NCBI GenBank assembly: GCA_046757165.1
Contig: JBHHXT010000091.1
Location: forward strand, 1 to 18,673
Length of the DNA: 18,673 nucleotides
Reading direction: 5' to 3'
DNA from: a bacterium
GTDB lineage: Bacteria; Zhuqueibacterota; Zhuqueibacteria; Oceanimicrobiales; Oceanimicrobiaceae
The translations under genes were made by a program, and so were the position numbers. Shown here piece after piece: positions 44-18,673 of the stretch. The stretch's first letter is position 1. Each line of letters starts with the position of its first letter. Under the pieces are notes generated by a model. It was not told where the DNA came from, searched no databases, and worked only from the letters and a program-made list of their open reading frames with translations.

Positions 44-691
44 TCACCGGCCCAGAAAGAATATCACGCCAAACTTGATGGTATACTCGTGCGCGGTGAT
101 GTCAGGAACAGAACCTGCCCCATTTTCCTCCTCTGTGGATTGCGGCAGGTTGAACATCGTCTGGTATTCAAAGCCGATATCCAGCCACGGACCGAGTCCG
201 ATATCATACTGGATGCCGCCGCCGATGTTCCACCCGAGCGCCCAGTTGTTTTCCTTCGACTCAAAAAAGGAGCGACTCTGTCCCACCTGGTTGAAGAACT
301 GACTGGTCACATTGAGTCTGAAATAGTACAGGCCGCCACTTGTTCCCGCATACACCTTGAAACTCCTGTTGCCAATCTTGTATTCTGGCCCAAAAGTCAG
401 ACGGAACCCTTCGTTTCTCAGCTCGACGTTGATGCCCAAAAACGGGTCAAAAGCTCTTTCTTTGCCAAACGTCAGGAAAGCAAAATCACCGCGGAGACCG
501 AGGTGGCCACCTAATCCACCGGTGGTGCGCACCACTTTGACGCCAAACCCGCCGCCGGTGCCCTCCACGTTTGCGAACTCGTTTTCGGGTACGGAGATCA
601 CAATATGGGGACTCACTGCCCACTGCGCCTGAACAGCGAGGGGAAGGCTTGCACTAAACAGAACAACTACCAAAACAATGGATGGTTTCAT
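44..691 (-). CDS. Outer-membrane beta-barrel protein (small, OmpA/OmpW-like fold), function unknown
   Basis: 215-aa ORF with a Sec-type signal peptide (MKPSIVLVVVLFSASLPLAVQA). Alternating Gly/aromatic beta-strand segments (GWNIGGGIQY, LDIGFEY, IKFGVIFF). AAGGA SD upstream. Confidence 0.75.
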   Translation of the reverse strand: MKPSIVLVVVLFSASLPLAVQAQWAVSPHIVISVPENEFANVEGTGGGFGVKVVRTTGGLGGHLGLRGDFAFLTFGKERAFDPFLGINVELRNEGFRLTFGPEYKIGNRSFKVYAGTSGGLYYFRLNVTSQFFNQVGQSRSFFESKENNWALGWNIGGGIQYDIGLGPWLDIGFEYQTMFNLPQSTEEENGAGSVPDITAHEYTIKFGVIFFLGR

Positions 692-736
692 GTTTAAATC
701 CTTGTCATATTCTGCTCTTAGTCAAAAAGAATACTG

Positions 737-765
737 AATATAGCCAGTTTTATTCCTGGAATCAA
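737..765 (-). promoter_or_regulatory. Putative sigma70 promoter for the beta-barrel gene
   Basis: Minus strand TTGATT-17 nt-TATATT, about 45 nt upstream of the ATG at 691. Confidence 0.5.
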
Positions 766-811
766 GGATTATTCAGGTTGGCTACAACAAAATAGACCCG
801 TACCGCTATTG

Positions 812-1124
812 TCAGTGCTGCTGTGATTTGACGCTCTGCAGGAATTCGCCAATCGTGGCGTGATTCAGTTGCTTGTATTCCGGATGCGCATCCAGCCACT
901 CGTTCAAATGCTCTTCTGACCAAACGAGATTGTCGACCGCTCAGCCCCCGCCCTGCTGAATCCAGACGAACTCGGGACTCAGCGCAGCAATTTCACCCTT
1001 TTCAAGCGTCAGATGGATTCTTTTGCTGCGGGGGCGCCTGCTTAGCCAGCCGCTCCCGGGCAAACAAGAAAAGGGCCAAACAGGTCAAACCCAGAATCAA
1101 TAAGACCAAAGATTTTCTCTTCAT
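812..1124 (-). pseudogene. Frameshifted or internally deleted small exported protein with a MerB-like C-terminal segment and an in-frame TGA (candidate selenocysteine)
   Basis: AAGGAG SD, then ATG at 1124 encoding a signal/anchor peptide (MKRKSLVLLILGLTCLALFLFA); this frame stops at 1002-1004. The +1 frame from about 1030 reads SKRIHLTLEKGEIAALSPEFVWIQQGGG-TGA(941-943)-AVDNLVWSEEHLNEWLDAHPEYKQLNHATIGEFLQSVKSQQH-stop(812-814), which resembles the C-terminal half of MerB-like proteins. Confidence 0.55.
899..928 (-). promoter_or_regulatory. Candidate bacterial SECIS element
   Basis: Hand-folded CUCGU-[UUGG bulge]-UCAGA-loop AGAGCA-UUUGA-ACGAG. The apical loop starts 26 nt after the UGA at 941-943 and has G at loop position 2. 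Confidence 0.45.
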
Positions 1125-1271
1125 CCTGTTCTCCTTTTGGTTGCGTTCCGAACTGAGGGCCTGGCCGTGCTTCCTGCCCCGGTTGCCCAAATCACGCTCA
1201 CAACCGCCGGATTGGCGACTGTTCGTGGCGGTCTGTCAGACATCTCTTTATACCGTTTGATAAACTCAATC

Positions 1272-1312
1272 TTCCACGAAAAGTCATACGACTCATATGA
1301 GTTTTCATGGAA
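1272..1312. repeat. Imperfect inverted repeat (17-bp arms, 7-nt spacer) overlapping a perfect 12-bp palindrome
   Basis: TTCCACGAAAAGTCATA-CGACTCA-TATGAGTTTTCATGGAA with 2 arm mismatches. ACTCATATGAGT at 1291-1302. Confidence 0.7.
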
Positions 1313-9703: not shown

Positions 9704-10795
9704 TTAATTCCCGAGAATCGCCTTGACGAGTTCCCGAATGTGAGTATTAAGGTATTGATACGTTTTTTCGTAAGCCGCTTGAAGTTCTTCTTCTGACCCG
9801 GACAGCTCTGACGGATCCTCAACCTCCCACCGGATGCTGACCGTTTTTGTTGGTGGAGGTGGAAAGGCTTCTTCCGCTTCTTTGCAAAGCGATATGATGA
9901 CATCATAGTGCTCCGGGACCACAATTTGTTTGAAGGATTTTGAAGTTTGTGCCGAGATGTCGATGCCCTTGTGAGCCAGAAAGCTCACTGTCTTATGGTC
10001 CACAGACCTGGGAGCGACGCCCGCACTGTTGAACAGCACCCCTTCGATTCCCAACCCATTGCCGATGCCCTCGGCCATCTGCCCGCGGCATGAATCGCCC
10101 TGGTCCACGAAAAGGACGCGAAAGATGTCTTTGCCCTGATGCTTGATGTTCTCGCCAGTACACATGTACAGGACTTCTTCGCAGATATTGCACGCCTGGT
10201 CTGCCACCCGCTCGAAGCGGCTGGCGATAATCATGAAAGGCGGCAGCGCCTCCGAAGGAAGTTTGTGGGCATTGCGCAGTCGAAGCAAATCGTCATGAAT
10301 GGCGTAGCGACTCTCGTCGACTCCGGCCTCCATCTCCATGGTAGACTTCGCCAACTCCGCATCCTGGTCGACAAACGATTGAATGGCATTGCGCAGCATC
10401 GGGATGGAGAGCTGGGCAATTTCAACGACTTTCGGATACGATGGCGCCGGGTCGATAGAATCGATGGCCAGGAATTGTCGGGCGATGCTTTCAGCGTAAT
10501 CGCCAATCCGCTCCAATTCGTTGTTGATCTTTATCACCGCGTACACAAAGCGCAAGTGGCCTGCTGCCGGTTGCTGCCGGACAAGAAACTCGAGGCACAG
10601 CCGGTCCAGCTCCTTTTCCAGCTCATCGATATGTCGGTCTCGCAGGACGACCGAATACGCCAATTGGCGTTTCCCATCAGTCAGCACCTGGACGCTCGTG
10701 TTCAACGCACTTTCGACCAGACCTGCCATCTCGACCACTTTCGTGCGAATTCGCTCCATGTCCTGGTGCAGACTCTCTTCTAAACGTGATTCCAT
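9704..10795 (-). CDS. phoU: PhoU fused to a C-terminal ArsC/LMW-PTP-like domain with a degenerate P-loop
   Basis: Two PhoU repeats (QQPAAGHLR, ELERIGDYA, FERVADQACNICE), then VLFVDQGDSCRGQMAEG, SAGV, GIDIS, WEVEDP. Confidence 0.9.
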   Translation of the reverse strand: MESRLEESLHQDMERIRTKVVEMAGLVESALNTSVQVLTDGKRQLAYSVVLRDRHIDELEKELDRLCLEFLVRQQPAAGHLRFVYAVIKINNELERIGDYAESIARQFLAIDSIDPAPSYPKVVEIAQLSIPMLRNAIQSFVDQDAELAKSTMEMEAGVDESRYAIHDDLLRLRNAHKLPSEALPPFMIIASRFERVADQACNICEEVLYMCTGENIKHQGKDIFRVLFVDQGDSCRGQMAEGIGNGLGIEGVLFNSAGVAPRSVDHKTVSFLAHKGIDISAQTSKSFKQIVVPEHYDVIISLCKEAEEAFPPPPTKTVSIRWEVEDPSELSGSEEELQAAYEKTYQYLNTHIRELVKAILGN

Positions 10796-11077: not shown

Positions 11078-14000
11078 TTATTCGTTCCGAAGACTAAGTT
11101 GCCGCCCACGCCAGACCGTATAGATTGCCGGAATGACCAGTAGCGTCAAAATAGTCGACGTGACCAGCCCTCCGACCATCGGCGCTGCAATTCGCTTCAT
11201 GACGTCCGCACCGGCGCCCGTGCTCCACATGATAGGCAACAGCCCGAGGATCGTGGTGCTGACTGTCATCATCTTCGGGCGCACCCGTTGCACTGCGCCA
11301 CCGGTGACGGCTTCCCGCAATTGTTGCAATGATTTCATGCGGCCTTGTCGCTGGTAGCGGTCGAAATATTCATCCAGATAAACAATCATCACCACACCCG
11401 TTTCAGCCGCCACGCCGGCGAGCGCGATGATCCCCACCCAAACGGCGACGCTTGTGTTGAACCCTAAGAGCCACAGAAGCCAAACCGCTCCGACCACAGA
11501 AAATGGCACCGACAGCAGCACAATCAGTGTTTTGGGAACAGACCTGAAGTTGAAATAGAGCAGCAGAAAAATAAAGACAATCGTTACTGGAACCACCAAC
11601 TTCAACTTCTCCCGCACTCGCTGCAGGTATTTGTACTGACCCGCCCAGGCAAGCGTGTACCCCGGTGGGATATCCACATTGTCCAGAATGACCTGCTGCG
11701 CCTGGCGCACATATTTGCCGTAGTCTTTCTCGACCACATCCACAAACACGAAGCCGACCTTCGAACCGTTCTCGTTGCGAATCATGGGTGGCCCGGTGGT
11801 TGGAAATATGTCAGCCAACTGGGCAATGGGGACCCTGGCGCCGGAAGAAGTCGGCACCAGAATGCGTTTCAGTTTATCCAGATCATCGCGCAGCTCTCGT
11901 GGATAGCGTACGTTGACTGGATAGCGCTCTTTGCCCTCGATAGTTTGTGTAATGTTCATGCCGCCGATAGCGGTTTGGATGATGTCCTGAACGTCTCCAA
12001 CGGTCAAGCCGTACCGGGCTGCTTGCTGGCGGTTGATCTCGAAATCAATGAAATACCCACCGCTGGTTCTTTCTGCAAATGCGCTGCGTGTGCCCGGGAA
12101 ATCTTGCAGCGCCTGTTCGATGTCCACAGCAATGCGTTCGATCTCCCTGAGGTCCGGGCCGAAAACTTTGATTCCCAAATTGCTGCGAATGCCGGTGGTC
12201 AGCATCTCTGTCCGCGTTTGAATAGGCATCCACCAGATGTTTGCCATGCCCGGAAACCTGAGTTTTTGGTCCATTTCAGCGACGATTTTATCCCAGGTCA
12301 TGCCCGGCCGCCACTCATCTTTTGGCTTGAGCGTAATGGTGGTTTCGACCATGCTGAGCGGAGCCGGATCCGTGGCGGTGCGCGAACGGCCGATTTTGCC
12401 GAAGACGCGCTCCACTTCAGGGAAGGTGGCCAGAATCTTATCCTGGATATGAAGAATCTTTTTTGCTTCCGAGGCCGGCATGCCCGGAATAGACGTCGGC
12501 ATGTAGAGGATGGAGCCTTCGTTGAGCGGTGGCATGAACTCGGTGCCGAGCATTATGAAAATGGGAACCGTTGCGACAAGAATGAGCACGGCCGCCACAG
12601 TGACCCACTTGCGGAACCGCAGGACAAAATCGACCAGAGGGCGATATGTCCACATCAGAAAGCGGCTGATGGGATTCTTTTCTTCCGGGCGAAGCTTCCC
12701 TTTTACAAAGATGGGAATCAGCGCCGGCGCCAGGGTCACGGCCAGAATCGCAGCGAAAAACATGGAGAACGTCTTGGTGTAAGCCAGCGGTTTGAACAAA
12801 CGTCCCTCTTGCCCCTCCAGAGTAAAGATGGGTAGAAACGAAACCGTGATTACCAGCAGCGAAAAAAAGATCGGTTTACCGACTTCTTGCAAGGATTTGA
12901 TGATCACCGTCAGGCGGTTTTCTTTCCGTCCGGTCTGTTGCCATTGTTCGAGTGCTTTGTGCGAATTCTCCACCAGCACGATGGCCGCATCAACCATTAC
13001 TCCGATGGCGATGGCAATTCCACCCAGAGACATAATGTTGGCGTTGAGTCCCATGAATTTCATGGGAATAAAAGCAATCGCCACCGCGATGGGCAAAGTA
13101 AGGATGGCAACTGAAGCGCTGCGTAGATGAAACAGAAACAGGATGATGACAAGACTGACGATGATCATCTCTTCGGTCACCTTTTCCCGCAAAGTACGAA
13201 TGGCCCTCGAGATGAGATCCGAGCGGTCGTAAGTCGTGACAATCTGCATACCCTGGGGCAGAGAGGGTTTGACCTGTTCGATTTTCTCCTTCACACCCTC
13301 GATAACCCTGAGCGCATTTTCCCCGTAGCGCATCACCACAATGCCGCCGACGACCTCACCTTTGCCATCGAGCTCGGCGACGCCGCGGCGCATGTCCGGG
13401 CCCAGGTGCACATGGGCCACATTGCGAATGAAAACAGGCGTGCCGCTGCCGTCAGTCGCCAGCGCTATTTGCTCGATGTCCTGCACCGATTGGATGTAGC
13501 CTCTCCCGCGCAGCATGAATTCGGTCGATGCCATTTCAATGACCCGCCCGCCGACGTCGTTGTTGTTTTCCCGCACTGCCTGAATGACGCGTTTCAGGGG
13601 GATGTTGTAGGCCACAAGTTTGTTGGGATCCACATCGATTTGGTATTGTTTAACAAACCCGCCAACCGAGGCCACCTCGGCGACACCCGGCACCGCTTCC
13701 AGCCAGACCTTCAGATGCCAGTCCTGAAAGGACCGCAGGTCGGCTAAATTCCAGCGCCCGCTCGTGTCTACCAGAGCATATTCAAACACCCAGCCCACGC
13801 CCGTGGCATCCGGGCCAAGGGTGGGGGTTGCGCCTGCAGGGAGCCGGGCTTCGATTTCGTTCATATATTCCAATATCCGGCTGCGTGCCCAGTACATGTC
13901 CGTGCCGTCTTCAAAGATCACATAAACAAACGAAAGCCCGAAGAAGGACTGTCCGCGGACGAACTGCACTTTGGGCGCAGCCAAAAGACTGGTGACAATA

Positions 14001-14203
14001 GCATAGGTGATCTGATCCTCGATGATATCCGGGCTGCGGCCAGGCCATTCGGTAAAGACGATCACCTGCGCGTCCGACAGGTCCGGAATGGCGTCCAGGG
14101 GGGTGTGTGACAAGGCCCAGACGCCCCAGATTGTGGCAATGCCGACCAGCAAAAAAACCAGGAGTCTATTTTTTACGCTGGCCGCAATGAGTTTTTCTAT
14201 CAT
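11078..14203 (-). CDS. cusA: Heavy-metal efflux RND permease, CusA/SilA type (Cu+/Ag+)
   Basis: Start reassigned to ATG 14203 (GGAG SD). PLDAIPDLSD, GPDATGVGWV, MSLGGIAIAIGVMVDAA, EFMPPLNEG, TDPAPLSM, MPIQTRTEML, RVRPKMMT. Confidence 0.95.
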   Translation of the reverse strand: MIEKLIAASVKNRLLVFLLVGIATIWGVWALSHTPLDAIPDLSDAQVIVFTEWPGRSPDIIEDQITYAIVTSLLAAPKVQFVRGQSFFGLSFVYVIFEDGTDMYWARSRILEYMNEIEARLPAGATPTLGPDATGVGWVFEYALVDTSGRWNLADLRSFQDWHLKVWLEAVPGVAEVASVGGFVKQYQIDVDPNKLVAYNIPLKRVIQAVRENNNDVGGRVIEMASTEFMLRGRGYIQSVQDIEQIALATDGSGTPVFIRNVAHVHLGPDMRRGVAELDGKGEVVGGIVVMRYGENALRVIEGVKEKIEQVKPSLPQGMQIVTTYDRSDLISRAIRTLREKVTEEMIIVSLVIILFLFHLRSASVAILTLPIAVAIAFIPMKFMGLNANIMSLGGIAIAIGVMVDAAIVLVENSHKALEQWQQTGRKENRLTVIIKSLQEVGKPIFFSLLVITVSFLPIFTLEGQEGRLFKPLAYTKTFSMFFAAILAVTLAPALIPIFVKGKLRPEEKNPISRFLMWTYRPLVDFVLRFRKWVTVAAVLILVATVPIFIMLGTEFMPPLNEGSILYMPTSIPGMPASEAKKILHIQDKILATFPEVERVFGKIGRSRTATDPAPLSMVETTITLKPKDEWRPGMTWDKIVAEMDQKLRFPGMANIWWMPIQTRTEMLTTGIRSNLGIKVFGPDLREIERIAVDIEQALQDFPGTRSAFAERTSGGYFIDFEINRQQAARYGLTVGDVQDIIQTAIGGMNITQTIEGKERYPVNVRYPRELRDDLDKLKRILVPTSSGARVPIAQLADIFPTTGPPMIRNENGSKVGFVFVDVVEKDYGKYVRQAQQVILDNVDIPPGYTLAWAGQYKYLQRVREKLKLVVPVTIVFIFLLLYFNFRSVPKTLIVLLSVPFSVVGAVWLLWLLGFNTSVAVWVGIIALAGVAAETGVVMIVYLDEYFDRYQRQGRMKSLQQLREAVTGGAVQRVRPKMMTVSTTILGLLPIMWSTGAGADVMKRIAAPMVGGLVTSTILTLLVIPAIYTVWRGRQLSLRNE

Positions 14204-14225
14204 GCTAAATTGCTCCAGATTGTTC

Positions 14226-14254
14226 TTGAAAAAACTGTGCAAATGAATTATCTT
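14226..14254 (+). promoter_or_regulatory. Putative sigma70 promoter of the TA pair
   Basis: TTGAAA-17 nt-TATCTT, followed by a GGAGGT SD and ATG at 14277. Confidence 0.6.
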
Positions 14255-14878: not shown

Positions 14879-16504
14879 CTACATGGTCTGTAAGACTCCC
14901 TGCACATGTGCCTCGGCATCGATGAGAAAGTTTCCTGATTTCACGACCACTTCTCCGGCTGCCAGGCCTTCCACAACCGCATAAGCCCGTCCGACTTTCA
15001 CCCCCAGTTTGATCTCTCTGGGCTCGAAGCGGCCGTTGCCGCGGTCCACAAACACCAATTGCCGCACGCCTGTATTCAGCACGGCGGTTTCGGGAATCGT
15101 CAATTGCTCTCCCTCGTTCACTGCGATCTCGACCTCCGCGTACATGTCCGGTTTGAGCTTCAGGTCTGGATTTGGAAATACAAGACGGATTTGGGCGGTG
15201 CGTGTGCGGGCCTGAAGCGTTGGGTAAATGTAATCCACGCGTCCGGTGTAATTTGCCCCGGGGTCATACGACAACCGGATGCTCGCCTCTTGCCCCACTT
15301 TAATAAATGGCAGCTCATATTCGTAGATGTCTGCCAGCACCCAGACCTCGGAGAGATCAGCGATCGTGTACAAATCCGTGCCCTCTTTGGCGTGACGGCC
15401 TTGCAGGGTGTTTTTTTCAAGCACGTAGCCGCTTATTGGCGAGTAAAAAGTCAGCTTCAACCGGGGAGCGCCGGCTTTTTCTATCTGCGTCATTTGCTTT
15501 TCAGAAATACCCCACAGCAGCAACCGCTCCCGGACGGATTTCAGCAAGCTGTTTTTGCGGTTATCACCGTTCCCGCTGCTCGAGTTTGTTGTCCGTCTCT
15601 GCTGGGAAGATCCCATGAGCGCCAGGAGATACTCTTCCTGGGTTGAGACGAGCTCCGGGCTGTAAATATCGAACAGCGGCTGCCCCTGTGTTACCAGCTG
15701 GCCGGTGTAATTCACATATAACTTCTCAATCCAGCCGGAGAATTTCAGATTGACGGCAGCGATTTTCCTTTCGTTAAAAGTGACATGGCCGACAGTGCGG
15801 ATGGTTTTAGCGACAGGCCGCAATTTCACCGTGTCGCGCTGTACGCCAATAAGCTGCTGCTGGTACAACGGGATATTTACGGTGCGCACTTGTTTGTCTT
15901 TGGCGCCGGTTTGCGGTCCTGCACCTGCCTGATACACCGGCACCAAATCCATGGCGCAGATAGGGCATGTGCCTGGCTTCTTCACCTTAACCGAAGGGTG
16001 CATGGTGCAGGTGTAGTAATCGACTTCCGCTGGCCCCAAAGCGCCGCCCTCAGCCGAGGCTGACTTTACCCCTTTTGTCCCCGGGGTCACTTGCCACTGA
16101 GTGACGGCCAAAACGGTTGAACCCTCAACCACTTCCACCTTGACCTCCCAGGGGAACATGCCGCCAGCGCCTAAATCGATTTGGGCTTCATATAATCCGT
16201 TTTCAACGTGTCGTGCTTCTGTATCATTTGCCATGGCCTGCATGCCGGCCATAGCAGGCATGGAATAATGAACGTGTACGGTCGCGCTCGTAACAGGTCT
16301 ACCGGCGGCATTCTTTACTCTTACCTTGAAAGTATTCAAGCCGGCGGCCGGCGGATCAGGTGACACGGTAAGCGCAATTGTGTGATCACCGGCTTTTTGG
16401 AAAGCCTCTTCCACGTCGCCGCAGCCGTTGAAAATCAGCAAAGCGCTTATCAAAAGCAAAGCGTCAAACAATCCGGACAGGTGAGAAGAAAATTCTGGTT
16501 TCAT
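14879..16504 (-). CDS. cusB: CusB-like RND periplasmic adaptor with N-terminal YtkA/FixH-like and heavy-metal-binding domains
   Basis: AAGGAG SD, lipobox-like IFNG-C, Ig-like segment with HYSMPAMAGMQAM, YTCTMHP...CPICAMDL, GWIEKLYV, IYSPELVSTQEEYL, LKPDMY, GNFLIDAE. Confidence 0.9.
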   Translation of the reverse strand: MKPEFSSHLSGLFDALLLISALLIFNGCGDVEEAFQKAGDHTIALTVSPDPPAAGLNTFKVRVKNAAGRPVTSATVHVHYSMPAMAGMQAMANDTEARHVENGLYEAQIDLGAGGMFPWEVKVEVVEGSTVLAVTQWQVTPGTKGVKSASAEGGALGPAEVDYYTCTMHPSVKVKKPGTCPICAMDLVPVYQAGAGPQTGAKDKQVRTVNIPLYQQQLIGVQRDTVKLRPVAKTIRTVGHVTFNERKIAAVNLKFSGWIEKLYVNYTGQLVTQGQPLFDIYSPELVSTQEEYLLALMGSSQQRRTTNSSSGNGDNRKNSLLKSVRERLLLWGISEKQMTQIEKAGAPRLKLTFYSPISGYVLEKNTLQGRHAKEGTDLYTIADLSEVWVLADIYEYELPFIKVGQEASIRLSYDPGANYTGRVDYIYPTLQARTRTAQIRLVFPNPDLKLKPDMYAEVEIAVNEGEQLTIPETAVLNTGVRQLVFVDRGNGRFEPREIKLGVKVGRAYAVVEGLAAGEVVVKSGNFLIDAEAHVQGVLQTM

Positions 16505-16718: not shown

Positions 16719-17108
16719 CTAAATTAGAAAAGCAAAGAATCTCTTGAAGAGATGGTTATCTGCAGTCACGTTTTTTGAAGGGAGAAAATATTCTGAATGT
16801 TCAAGAGATGGGATGGTCAAACAAGGTTCACTTGATGAGAGAGAAACAATGATGCCTTCCGGAGCCTTTTGAGTCTTGGAGACAACGCCTTGCGTTGGAG
16901 CAGAGTCGTCCAGACCATGCCTGGCTTCGGCAATACAGCAGATCATGCGGGAGGGGAATTCTTCCTGACAACATTGCATCTGCCTGGAGCTGCAACACTG
17001 CTCAGAAACAGCGGCATTGATCAGAGGCACAAAAAACTGCAGGGTTGCTGCAATTAAGGTCACAGCAAATAACTCGAGAATCAATTTTTTGTGAAGCATT
17101 CTCACCAT
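16719..17108 (-). CDS. Small Cys-rich membrane/exported protein, possibly a metal-responsive leader
   Basis: 129 aa with an N-terminal hydrophobic helix, three CC pairs (EQCC, MQCC, MICC) and a C-terminal LFKRFFAFLI. Followed by a 214-nt gap before cusB. Confidence 0.6.
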   Translation of the reverse strand: MVRMLHKKLILELFAVTLIAATLQFFVPLINAAVSEQCCSSRQMQCCQEEFPSRMICCIAEARHGLDDSAPTQGVVSKTQKAPEGIIVSLSSSEPCLTIPSLEHSEYFLPSKNVTADNHLFKRFFAFLI

Positions 17109-17217: not shown

Positions 17218-18144
17218 TCAATACAGCAGCTCGAATTGTTGAATCAAATGATGCGCAAAATCAGCCGCATAGACCCGAAATCCGGAATCAACGGCGACAT
17301 CGGTTGGAGAGAAGACGACTCCCTGCCATTTGTTCTCGTACCAGGTGCTAAACAGGTGGTGCATCTCGCTGTCGAAAACCTGCAGCCGCTTGTTGGCGGC
17401 ATCAGCAATGTAAATACGATTCTGGCGATCGATAGCCATGCCGCTGGCATCGGCAAACTGACCGGGGCCGGAACCGTGGCTGCCCCACATGCCGAGAAAC
17501 CGGCCTTCAGGCGTGAACTTTTGCAAGCGGGAATTGTGCGTGTCCAGCACCCAGACGTCTTGTTCGCGGTCCAGGGCCAGGTCCCCCGGAAACTCGAACT
17601 GACCTTCTTCATGACCGCGGCCTCCCCAGGTGAGCAAGAAATTGCCCTGCGCATCAAATTTTTGCACGCGGTGGTTGTTGAACTCCAATACCAGAATCTC
17701 ACCTTTGCGATTCACCACGACCGCGACCGGGGCATTGAACTCCCCCTCCGCGTTGCCGGGTGAGCCGAATTTGAACAGGAGGGTGCCGTGCGAATCGAAT
17801 TTGTAGACGGCGTCGTTGCCGAAATCGGTGATGTAAACATGGCCACGCTGGTCCGTCGTGATGCCGGTTGGACTGTCTAACACCTCCTGGCCCCAGCTCA
17901 ACAGGAACTCGCCCGCGGCGCTGAATTTCTGAATGCGGCGGTTCTGGGAATCAGTGACATACACGCTGCCATCGGGTGCAACGGCGACGCTTGACGGGTT
18001 GTAGAATTGCCCCCCGGCGGAACCGCGCCCGCCCCATTCCTTGATGAGCCCCAGAGCCCGAGGCTGTTCATCCCGCCGGCAACCTTGATTCAAGCTCGCA
18101 ACCATTGCTAGACCAACAGCGAGAAGTTGCCAATCTGCCCTCAT
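17218..18144 (-). CDS. NHL-repeat beta-propeller lipoprotein
   Basis: Start reassigned to ATG 18144 (GGAG SD). Signal peptide with LNQG-C. Repeated GQFxxPxxVAVxxxGxVYVxDxxNxRIQKF units. Confidence 0.88.
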   Translation of the reverse strand: MRADWQLLAVGLAMVASLNQGCRRDEQPRALGLIKEWGGRGSAGGQFYNPSSVAVAPDGSVYVTDSQNRRIQKFSAAGEFLLSWGQEVLDSPTGITTDQRGHVYITDFGNDAVYKFDSHGTLLFKFGSPGNAEGEFNAPVAVVVNRKGEILVLEFNNHRVQKFDAQGNFLLTWGGRGHEEGQFEFPGDLALDREQDVWVLDTHNSRLQKFTPEGRFLGMWGSHGSGPGQFADASGMAIDRQNRIYIADAANKRLQVFDSEMHHLFSTWYENKWQGVVFSPTDVAVDSGFRVYAADFAHHLIQQFELLY

Positions 18145-18202
18145 CACTGCTCCAATCGAGGGCCCCCTGCTAACGGTGCTACGGGGCCTCTCCCGGGCCG
18201 TT

Positions 18203-18673
18203 CTATTTTTCATCCACACGCTCCTCGAGTTGCTCCAGCAGCAGACCAGGATGGTCCTTGTCATCTTCAACCACCCGGGCTGAAATCGTAAACTTTTTTT
18301 CTCCCGTCTGAAGCCTTTCACGCAGTCTGGTCATCGTCCGCACGACGGTGTGGCCCTTTGGTTTCTGCGGTGACCGGTCCATCAACAGGAACGTTTGACC
18401 GGTACCGGGTACTTTGAAGACCAGATCCGCTCTTTTGCTTGTTTTTTCGTCCTGATTGCGACCCACCTCGCCGGTCGCTTTGATGTGAATTGCACCGGGT
18501 GAAAAATCCGCTTTCTTCACGGCCCGTCTCAGCTCTTTTGGGTTGAGGGGTTCATCCGCTTTCAGCGTCACATGAGCGCTTTGTGTTTCCAGACTGACCG
18601 TAACATCCTGAACGCCTTCCAGGCGCTTGAGGGTCTTCTTGACCCCGAAAGCTCACAAGCTTCAGGTCATGCC
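18203..18673 (-). CDS. HMA (CopZ/MerP-like) domain protein with a C-terminal extension; candidate selenoprotein with UxxU; 5' end outside the window
   Basis: In frame with ORF 18203..18571: GMT-TGA(18662-18664)-SL-TGA(18653-18655)-AFGVKKTLKRLEGVQDVTVSLETQSAHVTLKADEPLNPKELRRAVKKADF, a typical HMA fold pattern. Confidence 0.85.
18611..18645 (-). promoter_or_regulatory. Two tandem hairpins downstream of the UGA codons (candidate SECIS elements)
   Basis: GGGUC-AAGAA-GACCC (18631-18645) and AGCGCCU-GGA-AGGCGUU (18611-18627), folded by hand. Confidence 0.4.

Follow-up and report, generated by a model that had tools for sequence, protein, structure and literature searches.

Metal-binding proteins of the HMA type in which selenocysteine (Sec, U) stands at the ligand positions have been catalogued. 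The NCBIfam family NF041115, named 'UxxU_metal_bind', is described as a metal-binding (seleno)protein, and a table of a 2026 review lists it with two Sec residues (PMC13188914). The GOS selenoproteome table includes 'MerP' in a Sec form (PMC2398784). The original prediction for the DNA studied here, made from its letters, had stated that MerP/HMA proteins with Sec were already known, and these entries bear it out, down to a double-Sec UxxU form. In the UXXU-type Group 4 [NiFeSe] hydrogenases, the Cys positions of the metal ligands likewise carry two UGA codons, two codons apart; this protein family is unrelated, and the decoding there is likewise inferred (PMC13582414). The authors of that paper suggest that a single SECIS downstream, with a G in its apical loop, may be used for both UGAs.

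We studied a gene at the end of a stretch of 18,673 nucleotides, called the window below. The predicted product shares with NF041115 an HMA domain in which both metal-loop Cys appear as Sec, and an association with mercury-type genes. Like MerP (TIGR02052; PDB 1afi), the periplasmic Hg(II) binder of mer operons, it is predicted to be exported and has an HMA domain whose soft-metal loop offers two ligands, and the loci of its Sec-type (U-form) family have MerT and MerB-type neighbours, as MerP systems do. Judging from the DNA of this gene and of its relatives, it is very probably a real gene for an exported metal binder with two selenocysteines.

Reconstruction of the gene and domains of its product

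The window is the whole of contig C91, and therefore the gene lacks its 5' end within it. Read in frame from position 18673 on the minus strand, the letters are GGC ATG ACC TGA AGC TTG TGA GCT TTC. The translation from the window end is GMT*SL*AFGVKKTLKRLEGVQDVTVSLE (the same stretch is also written GMT*SL*AFGVKKTLKRLEGVQDV), and the motif at the window end is GMT-TGA-SL-TGA-AFGVKK. Apart from the two TGAs, the frame is uninterrupted, with no stop and no frameshift, down to the TAG at 18203-18205. The missing beginning was found on another contig of the same assembly, C425. Its first 55 bases repeat window positions 18619-18673, and this is the sole such overlap in the assembly. By itself, C425 carries GGAGGA (a ribosome-binding site), an ATG and then MNKSIYLCMTLLLFISTPLSAQIKEVSIAVDGMTUSLUAFG, in which a signal peptide precedes strand beta-1 of the HMA domain. 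The coordinates of all features are collected in Table 1.

Table 1. Coordinates of the UxxU gene, its RNA hairpins and its neighbours (window positions unless a contig is named)
Feature	Position	Strand	Remarks
UxxU HMA-OB gene, 3' 471 nt (residues ~32-187 and TAG)	18203..18673	-	first ~31 codons on contig C425
Start portion of the UxxU gene, ~31 codons	L023 (C425) 56..148	-	read from C425 alone
In-frame TGA 1, predicted Sec	18662..18664	-	first metal-ligand Cys position of the GMxCxxC loop
In-frame TGA 2, predicted Sec	18653..18655	-	second metal-ligand Cys position of the GMxCxxC loop
HMA domain, without strand beta-1 (on C425)	18503..18673	-	Pfam PF00403, residues 1-57, E 5.6e-14, 52.7 bits vs cut-off 24.8
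Predicted C-terminal OB-like beta-barrel	18224..18493	-	AF2 model, order b1-b2-b3-helix-b4-b5
Hairpin A, GGGGUC-AAGAA-GACCCU, 6 bp	18630..18646	-	loop begins 21 nt after TGA 1
Hairpin B, AGCGCCU-GGA-AGGCGUU, 7 bp, GGA loop	18611..18627	-	candidate SECIS core
OM beta-barrel (PF13557)	L023 (C425) 365..1291	-	encoded upstream of the UxxU gene
NHL-repeat beta-propeller, probable lipoprotein	17218..18150	-	Pfam NHL 149.6 bits; downstream partner gene
Cys-rich 129-aa ORF	16719..17108	-	hydrophobic signal-like N-terminus, clustered cysteines (CC..CC..CC), between the NHL and CusB genes
CusB-type RND adaptor with YtkA and heavy-metal-binding domains	14879..16504	-	Pfam HlyD_D23 270.9 bits, YtkA, HMBD
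CusA/AcrB-type RND efflux pump	11078..14242	-	Pfam ACR_tran 799.8 bits
PhoU domain fused to low-molecular-weight phosphatase / ArsC-like domain (LMWPc)	9704..10795	-	heads pst-type phosphate ABC operon, adjoins the CusA gene

The join of C91 and C425, which belong to a metagenome bin, is probably correct: it rests on the unique 55-nt overlap, on synteny with the related locus L060 and on Logan contigs that extend beyond the window end. In the Logan contigs of three runs (X1-X3), positions 18100-18673 are covered at a depth of 20-25 with no differences, and both TGAs are unchanged. Contigs of a fourth sample (X4) cover 18533-18673, also with no differences. The Logan contigs extend 18 to 239 letters beyond the window end, which indicates that the sequence continues there and does not imply identity to C425. 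All four samples come from a single study of hydrothermal vent metagenomes. Because X1-X3 are possibly the very samples behind the assembly, their contigs exclude an assembler slip only and do not represent independent biology.

The original prediction had described a double-TGA read-through with no other stop, and we found the same letters in the same frame, the strand being minus. The start codon and signal peptide expected upstream are present on C425, and the read-built contigs of the four runs give TGA rather than TGC or TGT. The assignment of an HMA domain with TGA at both motif cysteines also holds: the Pfam match is far above its cut-off, and in the metal loop, GMT-x-SL-x, the TGAs fall on both ligand positions of GMxCxxC. 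One statement was changed in part. The C-terminal stretch of about 90 aa had been left unassigned; there is still no Pfam family over this domain, and a model now gives it a predicted OB-like fold.

The predicted product of approximately 187 aa consists of a signal peptide, the HMA domain and a C-terminal OB-like domain. The AF2 model, built with 26 aligned sequences, has a pLDDT of 86.7 and a pTM of 0.80. In its HMA part, from which strand beta-1 is left outside, a helix (5-16), two strands (21-27 and 32-37) and a second helix (45-54) follow one another. Foldseek matched this part to 2roe with a probability of 1.00 (TMt 0.63) and to MerP, 1afi, with a probability of 0.98. The C-terminal part is modelled as an OB-like barrel, in which DSSP assigns strands 61-72, 84-88 and 93-98, the helix 108-122, and strands 127-135 and 143-150. 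The top Foldseek and VIA matches to this part are all OB folds, but weak: the best Foldseek E value is 4e-3 (Ten1, Stn1, RPA, Rho N-domain), and the best VIA Z score is 5.6.

TGA and cysteine at the two ligand sites

An exhaustive HMMER search of 1.84 billion protein representatives revealed a clade of closer relatives. Its three full-length representatives, P0003 (53% identity), P0008 and P0012, have W at both motif positions, and seven other representatives begin 1 to approximately 34 residues past the motif. Tryptophans or late starts are what protein sets should show when contigs with TGA at these positions are called with table 11 or with a code that reads TGA as Trp. In the case of P0003, the W is indeed TGA, as can be read from L060, a metagenome contig whose protein is near-identical to P0003 and 51% identical to the window protein; its motif is GMY-TGA-GL-TGA. 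The W in P0008 and P0012 presumably stands for TGA as well. Two genomes from another family of the same phylum carry GMT-TGA-GG-TGA (loci L066 and L067). It turned out that both sites are TGA in all four DNAs of the clade (the window gene, L060, L066 and L067; 45–51% amino acid identity), which is more than chance would give; the four DNAs represent about three lineages, since L066 and L067 are close kin. All four genes have otherwise open frames and signal peptides, and the 33–38 codons upstream of the TGAs are open, in frame and conserved (signal peptide and AQI.EV.I..GM).

At the same columns, C-P-F-C is found in 13/13 distant homologues (alignment A4; 22–34% identical to the protein P0001), and likewise in the loci of relatives (25–37%). 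The comparison of homologues at both positions, which the original prediction had proposed as a check, gave TGA in every clade DNA and Cys in every distant protein. On a maximum likelihood tree, 13 U-type or truncated rows split from 13 Cys rows with 100/98 support, the rows having been chosen from the top matches and the bootstrap being not fully settled. Both versions can coexist in one locus. Downstream of the UxxU gene, L066 (2..1459, minus strand; genome G132) carries an OM barrel gene and, beyond it, a Cys-form (CPFC) paralogue of the HMA-OB type.

Only the genome that carries the window was found to have the U clade among the 21 genomes of the family and among the 125 genomes of the class, and 3 of the 167 genomes of the phylum, this one included, possess it. 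A single-protein search with P0001 returned no relatives in genome contigs and metagenome contigs. The search with a smaller alignment (A2) returned one locus, L060, in metagenome contigs and none in genome contigs.

Probable UGA recoding and the hairpins after the TGAs

The genome that carries the window (G000) encodes tRNA-Sec (69.7 bits; ARAGORN anticodon tca), selA (568.6 bits), selB (358.9 bits) and two selD genes, one of which scores 403.2 bits, and another has one in-frame TGA and adjoins selB. All four of selA, selB, selC and selD are therefore present. At G000:C43:27035-29678, selB is directly followed by the Sec-type selD, with the in-frame TGA at C43:29037; the second selD, of the Cys type, lies on C171. 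At the same time, TGA is an ordinary stop here: 8 of the 15 window genes terminate with it, and the sole tRNA-Trp found in the genome has the anticodon cca. None of the 26 Fdh-alpha matches in this genome has an in-frame stop. We also compared 42,563 TGA-centred peptides with 23,032 ORFs of the genome in a scan for Sec/Cys paralogues; selD was the only convincing case, the output consisted mostly of off-frame and repeat matches, and no SECIS consensus was derived.

The related genomes are less clear. The searches of G132, which is 98% complete, gave no selA, selB or tRNA-Sec. G133 has selA and selB, and no tRNA-Sec above the cut-off. Both carry selD with an in-frame TGA, a gene that itself needs recoding, and we therefore read the missing Sec genes as assembly gaps; this remains a weakness.

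Two RNA hairpins follow the TGAs. The pairing of hairpin A is kept in 4/4 U-form DNAs, while its loop is variable (AAAAA in L060). Its covariation rests on one compensatory pair among the four DNAs (C-G in two sequences and G-U in two), next to two one-sided changes. Hairpin B is also present in 4/4 U-form DNAs and is invariant save for one change of A-U to G-U. It is a SECIS-like stem-loop downstream of the UGAs with a G in the apical loop. The 24-nt window of hairpin B folds with -8.6 kcal/mol in 4/4 U-forms, whereas the same window of the Cys-form genes contains hairpin B in 0/14 cases and folds with values between 0 and -5.4 kcal/mol. The 4- or 6-fold degenerate codons within hairpin B (CGC CTG GGC GTT) are identical across the four genes in 4/4 cases, compared to 1/27 degenerate codons of conserved residues elsewhere (Fisher p 1.6e-4 for a region chosen post hoc). 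The signal is in the local hairpins only, the 114-nt region overall being no more stable than shuffles (z -1.0), and no Rfam family was found over the TGA region.

The usual distance of a bacterial SECIS is about 16–37 nt. Hairpin B lies 32 nt from TGA 2 and 41 nt from TGA 1, a long spacing. The SECIS of the Sec-type selD in the same genome has the GGA loop as well, at 20 nt from the UGA of that gene, and hairpin A is at a selD-like distance from TGA 1. Either hairpin may serve a given UGA, a question raised likewise for the UXXU hydrogenases (PMC13582414). The original prediction of a probable UxxU selenoprotein is supported by the Sec machinery of the genome, by the TGA and Cys of the homologues and by the TGA in the read contigs.

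Three other explanations of the two TGAs have to be weighed. The UGAs may be recoded through SECIS and SelB, with one or both inserting Cys by means of a tRNA-ReC (selC*-type), so that the protein would have CxxC, UxxC or CxxU. We consider this improbable, although it has a precedent: according to PMC13582414, tRNA-ReC-like tRNAs occur in ~56% of the genomes with UXXU hydrogenases versus ~2.3% of other Sec-type genomes, and its authors warn that in such genomes Cys may be inserted at either UGA. Moreover, only 42 tRNAs were found in our assembly, so a tRNA of this type may be missing from it. However, the assembly yielded no tRNA-ReC-type tRNA and no second selC-like tRNA. The canonical selC is the only match to the tRNA-Sec model above the cut-off, and the sub-threshold matches are ordinary Leu, Ser, Tyr and other tRNAs. 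ARAGORN reported a 68-nt 'tRNA-SeC(tca)' in an intergenic gap at G000:C42:12913-12980 (L068 314..381); its cloverleaf is poor, Rfam gives no match there at E <= 1, and we rejected it as probably false.

Somewhat less probable still is that the TGAs act mainly as an expression switch that depends on Se or metal, with inefficient double read-through and Se chemistry only secondary. Inefficient decoding could be expected from two UGAs 9 nt apart with structures at unusual distances, and the samples come from hydrothermal vents, where Se and metals may co-vary. However, it is exactly the pair of metal ligands that is replaced, which is also the case in other UxxU families (NF041115, in the table of PMC13188914), and this points to chemistry rather than regulation. 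The least likely of the three, and in our opinion very unlikely, is that the TGAs are plain stops in a decaying pseudogene, or that only the table-11 ORF 18203..18571 (122 aa) is made. Gene callers yield just such truncated products (P0002 and the seven cluster representatives), as the original prediction expected them to, and the lack of selA, selB and selC matches in G132 could be read in the same way. Decay would not readily explain why nonsense codons fall exactly on both ligand positions in 4/4 DNAs at 45–51% identity, why the upstream codons remain open, in frame and conserved, or why the TGAs are followed by a hairpin that is specific to the U-forms and has frozen synonymous sites. In addition, the truncated product would begin in the middle of the HMA fold, and the selD of G132 itself requires UGA recoding.

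Envelope module and comparison with known systems

All genes, in the order from C425 through the UxxU gene to its neighbours in the window, are on the minus strand. Besides the OM barrel, C425 carries a MerP-like HMA lipoprotein, a protein of the CopZ-N-terminal Fe-S type (NF047645) and a MerB-related lyase, the latter matching with 150 bits, below the model cut-off. The CopZ-N-terminal gene was examined as a candidate ending in a 'CU' Sec motif and was rejected: its match to the Cys-Cys family NF047645 (141.3 bits, residues 1-144) indicates that its TGA is a plain stop. Homologues of the NHL protein have lipoprotein signal peptides of the lipobox type. The Cys-rich ORF next to it has no match in Pfam or NCBIfam. 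The order of genes is the same in L060: barrel, UxxU gene, NHL. The flanks of L066 and L067 contain MerT, an HMA lipoprotein, a DF-family protein, a YHS protein and a MerA/GR-like reductase. Directly upstream of the UxxU gene in L067 (1039..1341, plus strand), there is a 100-aa protein with a weak match to NF049942, 'DF family (seleno)protein' (46 bits, cut-off 70), and this DF-like protein has no in-frame TGA before its stop.

Using tblastn, we found that the OM barrel and NHL genes both flank an HMA gene in 13 related loci, mostly of the Cys form (L023 with the window; L025-L032, L035, L039, L060 and L063). The second domain of the HMA protein in this module is OB-like or a second HMA. As far as gene order and domain matches tell, the OM barrel (PF13557), the exported CPFC or UxxU HMA protein and the NHL-propeller lipoprotein form a conserved envelope module. 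We know of no described function for it.

Taken as a whole, the likeliest explanation, which we hold with good though not full confidence, is an exported HMA-OB protein in which both UGAs are recoded as Sec and which would handle soft metal together with its module partners. The Sec-type signal peptide would export the protein, whose HMA loop would read GMT-U-SL-U. SelB and tRNA-Sec would recode both UGAs as selenocysteine, and the downstream RNA, that is, the invariant 7-bp hairpin B with the GGA loop and the covarying hairpin A before it, would direct the recoding. The mature periplasmic protein may then hold a soft metal tightly between two selenolates, most likely Hg(II), possibly Cu(I) or Ag(I). 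Its partners would be the products of the two flanking genes, the outer-membrane beta-barrel on the upstream side and the NHL-propeller lipoprotein on the downstream side, and the metal might be handed over for uptake and reduction of the mer type or for efflux of the CusBA type.

A more far-reaching reading seems doubtful to us, but worth stating. The OM barrel, the HMA-OB chaperone and the NHL lipoprotein might constitute an undescribed trans-envelope pathway for mercury-like soft metals, in one clade of which the chaperone would have changed over to a diselenolate site. The two UGAs 9 nt apart might then be read via a tandem-hairpin SECIS, with A placing SelB for the first UGA and B for the second, or via one hairpin for both at out-of-range distances.

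Since gene callers and public protein sets truncate the gene or read TGA as Trp, the predicted clade of exported metal-binding selenoproteins is invisible to annotation. The paired U-form and Cys-form families represent a natural experiment on the role of selenium in the binding of soft metals, and the gene offers a compact test case for the decoding of two UGAs two codons apart.

The scores against NF041115, whose cut-off is 95 bits, are 38.4 for P0001, 36.1 for P0003, 51.4 for L066 and 47.5 for L067. The NF041115 model covers a single domain in 74 positions, whereas the window protein adds a signal peptide, the OB-like domain of ~95 aa and the OMP/NHL module. With scores of 36–51 and this different architecture, the U clade is not a member of NF041115; the Cys-type HMA lipoprotein encoded nearby on C425 comes closer to it (79.4 bits). 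The window protein also differs from MerP: the match to TIGR02052 is 33.9 bits at a cut-off of 92.55, and it has the extra OB-like domain and U for C.

The nearest relatives in organization are the CPFC-type HMA-OB and HMA-HMA proteins (for example L025, L028, L031, L032; P0069, P0071), which are unnamed in Pfam and NCBIfam. They have the same order of OM barrel, HMA and NHL genes and share the signal peptide, the HMA domain and a C-terminal domain. In contrast to the U clade, they have Cys at both sites and lack hairpin B, and their OB domain contains a His-rich loop (HETPEGHHAHPF) that is absent from the U clade. The proteins of the CusF/SilF and YgiW types are also small periplasmic OB-like barrels. 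With VIA, SilF-Cu(I) (8bwv) gave a Z of 4.8 and an rmsd of 3.1 over 74 residues, and YgiW (1nnx) gave a Z of 5.4; these are intermediate values, equalled by many OB folds that bind nucleic acids. Comparison of the OB-like domain of the window protein with CusF, SilF and YgiW revealed no sequence similarity and no Met/His/Trp metal site.

The locus overturns nothing: the principle of UxxU in an HMA domain is known, and the arrangement is rare. It adds a second architecture, a predicted secreted HMA domain with an OB-like barrel, to the catalogued UxxU metal binders and links this architecture to the conserved three-gene envelope module. Thus, compared to the known systems, the UxxU HMA kind is not new; what is new is the family, its OB-like domain as modelled, the U-specific hairpin pair and the three-gene module.
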